From assembly GCF_044324785.1 (NCBI RefSeq), contig NZ_CP172127.1: DNA of 64,000 nucleotides; one strand, 5' to 3'. The notes beneath the pieces are model-generated. The model was not told the DNA's origin. It saw nothing but the letters and a program-made list of their open reading frames with translations, and did no database searches. The number at the start of each line of letters is the position of its first letter. Positions within the stretch are counted from its first letter, which is position 1. Shown here one piece after another: positions 62,378 to 64,000 of this stretch. Origin of the DNA: Escherichia coli (GTDB lineage Bacteria > Pseudomonadota > Gammaproteobacteria > Enterobacterales > Enterobacteriaceae). A program made the translations under genes and the position numbers.

Positions 62378-63235
62378 CTATGAACGCTTCAGCTTATCAA
62401 TAGCGGAAGTTATAATTTCATTGTCATCAAACTTGTACAACATAGTATCTAAAACAGGAAGTAGCGTTTTATCACCTAATTCACCCGCAGCTTCAATGAT
62501 ATCATCATAAACAGTATTTTTTTTTAACTCATCGCATAAAACAGATAAAACCCTTTTATCTTTTCTGTAGGAAAGTCCGATTATTGCTTCAATACGGACT
62601 TCCTCATTTTTATCCTGAAGCATCTCCACAAAACAATCCCTAATATCACTATTATCATATTTATTGATATTTATTGCAAATGCGGCCCAGTTTCTGACAT
62701 CTCCATTTGGATCTGTTAACAGATTAATCAATAGTGGAATTGTTGCTTTATCATTGATAACAGAAATAGCAAATGCTGTAGCACGTCTGACATTAGTCGA
62801 TTTATCAAAAGCAGTAATTTGAGATTGTTCTACTATTTTAGGTGAATAAATTGGGTTTTTCTTGCATCGCTGAGCCGTTGACTCGATTGCCGTAGCTCGA
62901 ACGCAAGCGCTCTTATCATTCAATGCCATATTGTTCAAAATATTAAACACATTATCTTCGCATTTTTTGCAAATTTTTATTTGCCCGAGTATAAATGCTC
63001 CGATATCTCTACGGATATAATTTTTATCAGAGCAGAACTCAATTGCCAATCTAACAGCGTCTTGCCCACCTCTTAACTGTAATACTCTGGCAGATGAAAT
63101 CCTTTTCAAGGAATTGTGATCATCAAGTAAGCGAAATAATTCATCATCATTTAGTTTCTTACATTGATTATATAAACCATACTCTTTACTTGCCTTTCTT
63201 TTCTGGTATGTATTTGACATTGCAGGAACCTCCAT
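62378..63235 (-). CDS. HEAT/PBS-lyase-like repeat protein; putative cognate immunity protein for the main Rhs CT
   Basis: 285-aa ORF starting 5 bp after the main rhs stop; repeated helical motifs (…VRRATAFAI…, …VRNWAAFAI…); AT-rich. Confidence 0.5.
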   Translation of the reverse strand: MEVPAMSNTYQKRKASKEYGLYNQCKKLNDDELFRLLDDHNSLKRISSARVLQLRGGQDAVRLAIEFCSDKNYIRRDIGAFILGQIKICKKCEDNVFNILNNMALNDKSACVRATAIESTAQRCKKNPIYSPKIVEQSQITAFDKSTNVRRATAFAISVINDKATIPLLINLLTDPNGDVRNWAAFAININKYDNSDIRDCFVEMLQDKNEEVRIEAIIGLSYRKDKRVLSVLCDELKKNTVYDDIIEAAGELGDKTLLPVLDTMLYKFDDNEIITSAIDKLKRS

Positions 63236-63240
63236 AAAGG

Positions 63241-64000
63241 CTATCTTTTTTTATCGTTTGACTGTCTGGAGTGACGACAATTCCAGGCTTTCTGTGTGCT
63301 TTTTGCATCTTTAGCACTAATATCACCACAATCAATTAGTTCCTGAAGTACGTCACATCTGTCGGGTTTTTTCCCATCACTCCAGAATCTGTCATTTATT
63401 ATGTCATTGACACGATCAGTTATCCCTGTGTCTGCAACATTTCCACGAGAAGCTATCATTGTTATATCTAATGCTAGTCCCGGATTATTCAATATTAGAG
63501 AGTCAAATATTCTTTGTGATGCTGTATCGTTCCACCATTTTGTCAATGCTTTTGCAGCATTATCATCTGCTTGCTGCTGTGCAGGGCTTTTGGGCCATGG
63601 AATTGGCAAGGGGAATGGTCTAGGAAAAACTTCTAACCCCAGAGGATCTGTATTCGTAACTGGATTCAACGGATACTGATAAAAATTCCATCCGCCCTTC
63701 AGCCCAATCGGATCCTGAGTGATATACCGCCCCTGCAGCGGGTCATAATAGCGGTGGCGGTTGTAATACAGGCCGGACTCCTCATCATACTGCTGACCCG
63801 GCAGGCGGATGGGCTGCTGCAGTTGATGCGGGTTCTCTTCATTCAGCAGGTTGCCCCACTCATCGTATTCTGCGCACCATTCTGTTGCCCCTTCCGTGCT
63901 GACAAGCGCCAGCGGCAGGCCGCGATGGTCGCAGTGGTACAGGTGGATTTTTCGCGCCGGCGTGTACACCGGGTCCATCTGGTTTTGTATCTGCTCCACC
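63241..64000 (-). CDS. rhsB: 3' end of an Rhs-family gene (rhsB context): core terminus, DPxGL boundary and variable C-terminal toxin domain; 5' end outside window
   Basis: Conserved Rhs core (…[38 protein letters not shown]) followed by a unique about 130-aa CT; the frame stays open to the window edge. Confidence 0.8.

Follow-up and report, generated by a model that had tools for sequence, protein, structure and literature searches.

Organization of the Locus

The end of the window, by which the whole analyzed stretch of 64,000 nucleotides of Escherichia coli DNA is meant, is occupied by two genes on the minus strand: the 3′ part of an Rhs open reading frame (63241..63999) and, directly downstream, yibA (62378..63220). 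The Rhs reading frame has no upstream stop inside the window and runs past its end, so that only the last 252 amino acids of the protein are present. These begin with the 3′-terminal part of the RHS repeat-associated core domain (Rhs core; 63634..64000, minus strand; Pfam RHS, PF03527, E = 7e-15), which extends to the pentapeptide DPLGL at residues 118–122 of the fragment. Both the NCBIfam RHS_core match (positions 1141–1261 of 1261) and the match to Rhs_assc_core (TIGR03696, 89 bits against a cutoff of 32.5) stop at residue 122, the final leucine of this motif. Exactly 130 amino acids follow before the stop codon TAG at 63241–63243. An earlier note, made from the letters alone, had located the features correctly and described a tail of roughly 130 amino acids after a DPxGL boundary; that description is accurate, and the protein strings it quoted all lie inside the tail. 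Base composition marks the boundary as well. The core part has a G+C content of 56%, the tail one of 40.5%, and the following gene one of 34%, the window averaging 48%; a drop of this kind where core gives way to extension is classical for Rhs elements.

Among the E. coli genomes of the collection, that of strain N3 is closest, matching at 99.8% over 4 kb and at 100% over the tail and yibA. The RefSeq annotation of this near-identical locus starts with nikR and a 1,377-amino acid "RHS element core protein", which is followed by yibA, part of an Rhs gene, a sel1-repeat gene, remnants of IS630 and ISAs1, and finally yhhJ, rbbA, and yhiI. The open reading frames at 55037–59960 of the window correspond to yhiI, rbbA, and yhhJ; flanked by nikR on one side and yhhJ–rbbA–yhiI on the other, the element therefore occupies the chromosomal site of RhsB in K-12. 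The YD/RHS shell, which here lies outside the window, is seen in the N3 protein, whose first 500 amino acids contain DUF6531 and several RHS_repeat matches. The N-terminus of the same protein gives a weak partial match to the Pfam PAAR_motif (E = 0.24, residues 2–20), with the letters P-A-A-R at residues 5–8. According to the N3 annotation, neither vgrG nor any other type VI gene adjoins the locus.

Beyond yibA lies a second, orphan Rhs 3′ fragment (61371..62336, minus strand) consisting of a core tail (NCBIfam RHS_core positions 1111–1261), the motif DPFGL, and a tail of about 170 amino acids of a different type; in strain N3 it is annotated as a partial RHS pseudogene. The tail of this fragment matched nothing in Pfam, NCBIfam, the PDB, or PADLOC. 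Judged from sequence, it is this orphan tail, and not the one preceding yibA, that is the item of this stretch without a family assignment. The next gene encodes a Sel1-repeat protein (YibG-like; 60878..61357, minus strand), annotated by RefSeq as "sel1 repeat family protein" at the equivalent place in N3 and represented by yibG at the equivalent position in K-12 and strain FAM21845; it is likely the immunity protein for the orphan tail. The Rhs element is closed beside yhhJ by an ISAs1-family (H-repeat) transposase fragment (60114..60485, minus strand; NCBIfam transpos_ISAs1, E = 5e-38), which covers positions 1–102 of the 314 in the model and is a pseudogene in the N3 annotation.

The Toxin Tail

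Whereas the earlier note had left the tail of the Rhs protein unassigned, a Pfam search identifies it as Ntox34 (PF15606, "Bacterial toxin 34") with E = 3e-43 and 146 bits, the match covering model positions 1–80 of 80 and being placed at 63259–63483 of the window. The tail is identical at 130 of 130 residues to that of RhsA (b3593) from E. coli K-12 MG1655, and five differences separate the two proteins in the last 122 residues of the core.

Two parts can be distinguished within the tail. Residues 1–61 (63451..63633, minus strand), which separate the cleavage boundary from the toxin domain, are proline-rich at first and then predicted to be helical, with AlphaFold helices at residues 17–35, 37–49, and 51–59. 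Another protein has a similar segment in front of a C-terminal domain of a different kind, and at the corresponding position other family members carry Gly/Ala-rich or hydrophobic stretches with GRAVY values of up to +1.16. By analogy with other delivered toxins, this part may constitute a linker or an entry segment. The Ntox34 toxin domain itself comprises tail residues 62–130 (63244..63450, minus strand; 100% identical to the K-12 RhsA tail) and features the motif GNVAD (residues 64–68), two conserved cysteines (C92 and C119), the sequence WNCRH (residues 117–121), and a basic C-terminal motif of 18 residues. Across the family the core contains GNxAD, PDRC, and T-x-K-A-W-G/N-C-R-x-S-R-x-S-K-D. 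In an alignment of 18 sequences, T113 is invariant, and conservation reaches 90% or more at N65, L96, K115, A116, C119, S122, and R123. At the histidine of the published WxCxH motif, several homologues have P, Q, R, or G instead. The cores are basic, with pI values of 8.6–10.1.

The AlphaFold model of the tail is all-helical, with a mean pLDDT of 82 and values above 90 over residues 70–120. A Foldseek search of AFDB50 with this model returned Ntox34 proteins only (from E. coli, Neisseria, Snodgrassella, Xanthomonas, and Salmonella), the Neisseria domains being about 65% identical to the E. coli domain among the AFDB matches. No fold relative outside the Ntox34 family was found in the PDB or AFDB. 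A profile search of PDB sequences with the tail gave a single weak and probably spurious match (ComGC, E = 0.012), and the PADLOC defence models produced no match for the toxin. With no credible relative, the fold of Ntox34 gives no clue to its activity. The earlier note's statement that the activity is not evident from sequence thus holds, the RNase label attached to the family in the literature being a prediction.

That label stems from the survey of Zhang et al. 2012 (PMC3482391), in which Ntox34 stands under the heading "Predicted metal-independent RNase toxins" and is described as an all-alpha domain with the motifs GNxxD, K, C, C, K, and WxCxH, an RHS carrier, and Imm-HEAT immunity. The pair described here resembles the Ntox34/Imm-HEAT pairs of that survey in its full-length model match, its motifs, its RHS carrier, and its HEAT-repeat immunity protein, and the all-alpha prediction made there is matched by the all-helical AlphaFold model. 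Nothing material differs, except that the histidine of WxCxH is not universal in the wider alignment used here.

The Immunity Gene yibA

The protein encoded downstream of the Rhs gene is identical at 279 of 280 residues (E = 3.4e-182) to PDB entry 1OYZ, "hypothetical protein yibA", from which it differs by a threonine in place of Lys169. It is a HEAT-repeat protein of the Imm-HEAT type: it scores 465 bits against the NCBIfam model PRK09687 (cutoff 275) and contains three Pfam HEAT_2 matches (E = 3e-08, 5e-06, and 8e-06). PADLOC returned generic HEAT matches only. The earlier note had called the protein HEAT/PBS-lyase-like; the HEAT part of this description is borne out by the HEAT_2 matches, but a PBS-lyase or NblB-type reading is not, with HEAT_PBS matching at E = 0.042 and NblB at 26 bits against a cutoff of 300. 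The name "putative lyase" under which YibA is found in databases is a legacy of repeat similarity.

The length of the gene also calls for revision. Counted from the first ATG (63235), the open reading frame that follows the Rhs stop codon starts 5 bp downstream of it and encodes 285 amino acids, as the earlier note had it. A perfect Shine–Dalgarno sequence, GGAGG (63229..63233, minus strand; read from the sequence), lies 8 nt upstream of the second ATG (63220), and the start at MSNTY that this codon provides is the one found in RefSeq, in the K-12 annotation, and in the crystallized protein. Taken together, the spacing of GGAGG and these three concordant starts make a length of 280 amino acids most likely for YibA. 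The gene then begins 20 bp past the Rhs stop codon, and the same 20-bp gap between stop codon and annotated start separates rhsA from yibA (b3594) in K-12.

The Pairing of Ntox34 with HEAT-Repeat Proteins

An exhaustive Ntox34 search of 1.84 billion cluster representatives yielded 41 at E ≤ 0.001, which marks the family as small. A word-indexed protein search returned near-identical fragments from E. coli and Salmonella only, so that the exhaustive search was needed to reach the distant members. The encoding contigs of nine such members, with about 30–55% identity, were inspected for the gene next to the toxin. In eight of these loci, the directly downstream gene matches YibA (BLASTP E-values from 5e-39 to 2e-03). 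Wherever enough sequence is available, the match is collinear from the N-terminus, and five of the eight downstream proteins carry precomputed HEAT_2 matches. The contig of the ninth locus contains just 24 amino acids of the next gene. In one family member, an eCIS_core domain (PF13699) takes the place of the Rhs shell in front of Ntox34, yet the next gene is again a HEAT-like open reading frame. Since the pairing is maintained across different delivery vehicles, the comparison speaks strongly for YibA as the immunity protein cognate to the toxin. Five of the six partner immunity proteins are acidic, with pI values of 4.4–5.4, the exception being E. coli YibA, which, unlike its homologues, is basic (pI 8.5).

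Experimental results from two systems agree with this assignment. In the account that Poole et al. 2011 give of the work of Vlazny and Hill 1995, the C-terminus of RhsA inhibits growth and yibA neutralizes this effect (PMC3150448). In Neisseria cinerea, the PAAR-Rhs effector Nte2, which bears an Ntox34 tail, is toxic in the cytoplasm of E. coli and is counteracted by Nti2 (PMC8263058). The N. cinerea and E. coli systems thus share a toxin family carried on an Rhs protein with the immunity gene downstream. They differ in that Nte2 possesses a clear PAAR domain and belongs to a strain whose type VI system has been demonstrated, whereas for the E. coli locus delivery is only inferred.

These sequence matches identify the stretch as the 3′ terminus of a classical Rhs element of E. 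coli, which carries an RhsA-type toxin of the Ntox34 family together with yibA as the immunity gene belonging to it. That the pair is correctly identified is practically certain, and it is highly probable that the two genes in addition serve as a toxin/immunity module. The earlier note's interpretation as a polymorphic toxin/immunity pair is accordingly corroborated by the family assignments, by the YibA-like genes that follow distant Ntox34 domains, and by the published toxicity and rescue. The novelty that it had seen in the pair does not survive: database search assigns both reading frames to known families, and the HEAT fold that it considered unusual for an immunity protein is that of YibA, the association of Ntox34, Imm-HEAT, and RHS having been tabulated since 2012 (PMC3482391). 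The pair is an already known one, annotated in thousands of genomes and represented by a Pfam family, a crystal structure of YibA, and a report of toxicity and rescue dating from 1995.

Distribution and Exchange of Rhs Tips

The 1,253-bp segment comprising the tail and yibA is present at a coverage of at least 80% in 1,756 of 5,426 complete E. coli genomes, nearly always at an identity of at least 99%. Up to about 1,385 further complete genomes show a partial match only, and those sampled among them contain yibA and about 30 nt upstream of it without the toxin domain. The position of the pair also varies. In K-12, strain FAM21845, and many other strains, rhsA–yibA is situated between yibF and yibH, whereas here the pair is found in the nikR–yhhJ interval, the rhsB site of K-12. 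Both in the window and in K-12, the pair is succeeded by an orphan Rhs fragment and a Sel1-repeat gene; the orphan tail is intact here but corresponds to the pseudogene yibJ in K-12. At the rhsA site of strain ECO2947, an RhsB-type tip and a YbbC/YhhH-family gene are followed by yibA as a displaced orphan; in other strains, too, the same Rhs boundary leads into another tail. The ECO2947 arrangement is the mirror image of that in the window, where an A-type tip occupies the rhsB site. Both arrangements are the expected outcome of recombination between conserved Rhs cores. The locus is thus a clean example of Rhs tip swapping, a process by which yibA is left elsewhere as an orphan immunity gene.

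The occurrence of yibA without a toxin tip in the sampled partial matches, exemplified by ECO2947, raises the question whether the pair in the window is a silent relic, in which yibA would guard against toxin-firing neighbours and the toxin would not be used as a weapon. The missing vgrG or type VI gene next to the locus and the weak PAAR match fit such a situation. Against disuse speaks the Rhs open reading frame of the near-identical strain N3, which is intact over its 1,377 amino acids, as does the toxin tip itself, whose conservation in 1,756 genomes suggests that selection acts on the toxin too. That the pair is a relic at this locus is possible, if doubtful.

Mechanism and Target

From what is generally known of Rhs proteins, the tail would be cut at the DPxGL aspartyl-protease site and kept inside the YD-repeat shell, from where it would be delivered into neighbouring cells, probably on a type VI secretion spike. 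Three points weigh against the type VI route: the PAAR match of the N3 protein is weak, no vgrG gene lies beside the locus, and K-12, which carries the same RhsA/YibA pair, is not known to possess a type VI system. The segment of about 60 amino acids that precedes the toxin domain may help entry to the cytoplasm, and the basic, helical Ntox34 domain of about 69 amino acids would then act there; the Nte2 experiment speaks for action in this compartment. Sister cells would be protected by YibA, the HEAT solenoid of which is expected on the same general grounds to bind the toxin in a 1:1 complex. No structure of such a complex was found.

The searchable literature that names Ntox34 or PF15606 reports no biochemical activity for any domain of the family. 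The most likely target is a nucleic acid; that the toxin cleaves RNA, as Zhang et al. predicted, is a tentative choice and less likely than not. A nucleic acid target finds weak support in the basic charge of the core, in the acidity of most immunity proteins, and in the RNase prediction of the literature. Two observations count on the other side: the replacement of the WxCxH histidine in several homologues argues against a histidine-dependent RNase mechanism, and a conserved core of about 69 amino acids is very small for an enzyme. It is also conceivable, though rather unlikely, that the activity or target of Ntox34 is of a kind unseen among interbacterial toxins and that YibA neutralizes it in an unusual way.

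Instead of cleaving RNA, Ntox34 might damage DNA or disturb its repair. The idea derives from a K-12 yibA::Tn5 mutant, in which rhsA is retained and which is more readily killed by nalidixic acid, mitomycin C, H2O2, UV, and SDS, ranking among the most UV- and H2O2-sensitive mutants of the screen in question (PMC2824699). Leaky self-intoxication adding to DNA damage would explain this sensitivity, albeit indirectly, and the basic toxin cores would suit a target of this type. The phenotype may also reflect a polar or general effect of the insertion, the authors of the screen drew no link to RhsA (PMC2824699), and no nuclease motif or fold was found in the domain. An attack on DNA is therefore considered improbable.

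Nor does the toxin have to be an enzyme at all: a small helical domain could block an essential cytoplasmic protein or complex stoichiometrically. The all-helical core of only about 69 residues, in which no catalytic fold can be recognized and the candidate catalytic histidine is not conserved, is compatible with such a mode of action. So is the phenotype of the RhsA C-terminus as cited by Poole et al. (PMC3150448), a block of recovery from stationary phase and not rapid lysis. However, the near-invariant polar residues N65, T113, K115, S122, and R123 are grouped in short motifs reminiscent of an active site. Moreover, toxins injected in small numbers usually need catalytic turnover. Stoichiometric inhibition is on balance unlikely.

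Finally, the view of YibA as a housekeeping "lyase" or stress protein that adjoins the toxin gene by coincidence and has no connection with it can appeal to the database name and to the stress sensitivity of the yibA mutant (PMC2824699), yet the poor HEAT_PBS and NblB scores, the rescue from RhsA toxicity as summarized by Poole et al. (PMC3150448), and above all the conserved pairing, with YibA-like genes behind Ntox34 in eight distant loci and behind different delivery domains, render it highly improbable and effectively refute it.

The pair of Ntox34 and YibA is in itself an ordinary toxin/immunity module. Besides the example of tip swapping, its residual value lies in the activity of Ntox34, a toxin encoded in the best-studied bacterium. 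The idea of an activity of a new kind would be easy to test, since the pair is present in E. coli K-12 and YibA has already been crystallized.

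Architecture and distribution of Ntox34 toxin tails

The 130-residue tail of the main Rhs protein (63244..63633, minus strand) belongs to the Ntox34 family (PF15606), whose WxCxH motif is not kept throughout: in our alignment of 18 sequences, several distant members carry proline, glutamine, arginine, or glycine in place of the histidine. Judged from sequence, this histidine probably does not act as a catalytic residue throughout the Ntox34 family. In one related database protein, P0035, the tail begins with the proline-rich, helical segment of the Ntox34 tail (…NDNAAQSLTKWWSDTSSQ…) but has a different, cysteine-rich domain at its C-terminus. 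The tail thus appears to have two parts, a common leader followed by an exchangeable toxin module.

In the metagenomic protein P0053 (contig L011, 2410-4304), an eCIS_core domain (PF13699) is fused to an Ntox34 tail, and the next gene on the contig is a HEAT-like open reading frame. A contractile injection system may therefore also carry the toxin/immunity pair of Ntox34 and HEAT protein as its cargo. The 81-residue protein P0027, in which YibA residues 1-32 (MSNTYQKRKASKEYGLYNQCKKLNDDELFRLL) are fused to the C-terminal half of an Ntox34 domain, may have arisen by recombination or as a chimera of the assembly.

The immunity gene yibA

The 285-codon reading frame that the earlier note had assigned to the HEAT-repeat protein is probably over-long by five codons: the second ATG is the start of yibA (62378..63220, minus strand) in RefSeq, in the K-12 annotation, and in the YibA structure (PDB 1OYZ). 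In the start region (63218..63235, minus strand), a GGAGG lies 8 nt upstream of this ATG. With a pI of 8.5 and a net charge of +4, E. coli YibA is basic, whereas five YibA-like proteins that partner distant Ntox34 toxins have acidic pI values (4.4-5.4).

Rhs remnants and exchange of tips between rhs sites

An orphan Rhs 3′ fragment (61371..62336, minus strand) has, behind a DPFGL boundary, a tail of ~170 residues that includes the letters GGHGYPGF. In contrast to the main tail with its Ntox34 assignment, this tail is truly unassigned, with no match in Pfam, NCBIfam, PDB sequences, or PADLOC. It is followed by a Sel1-repeat gene (60878..61357, minus strand), and a fragment of an ISAs1-family (H-repeat) transposase (60114..60485, minus strand) marks the end of the Rhs element, adjoining yhhJ. 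In strain N3, an IS630 remnant is also found at this end beside yhhJ.

The rhsA and rhsB sites have swapped tips in different strains. The nikR/yhhJ site, corresponding to the K-12 rhsB site, holds an RhsA-type tip and yibA both in the window (at 55037..64000) and in strain N3. In strain ECO2947, an RhsB-type tip and a YhhH-family gene occupy the yibF/yibH site, i.e., the rhsA site, where yibA remains as an orphan.

A 1,253-bp query spanning tail and yibA finds only a partial match in about 1,385 of 5,426 complete E. coli genomes; those sampled among them contain yibA with ~30 nt of upstream sequence and lack the Ntox34 toxin domain. It looks as though many E. coli have kept yibA as an orphan immunity gene.
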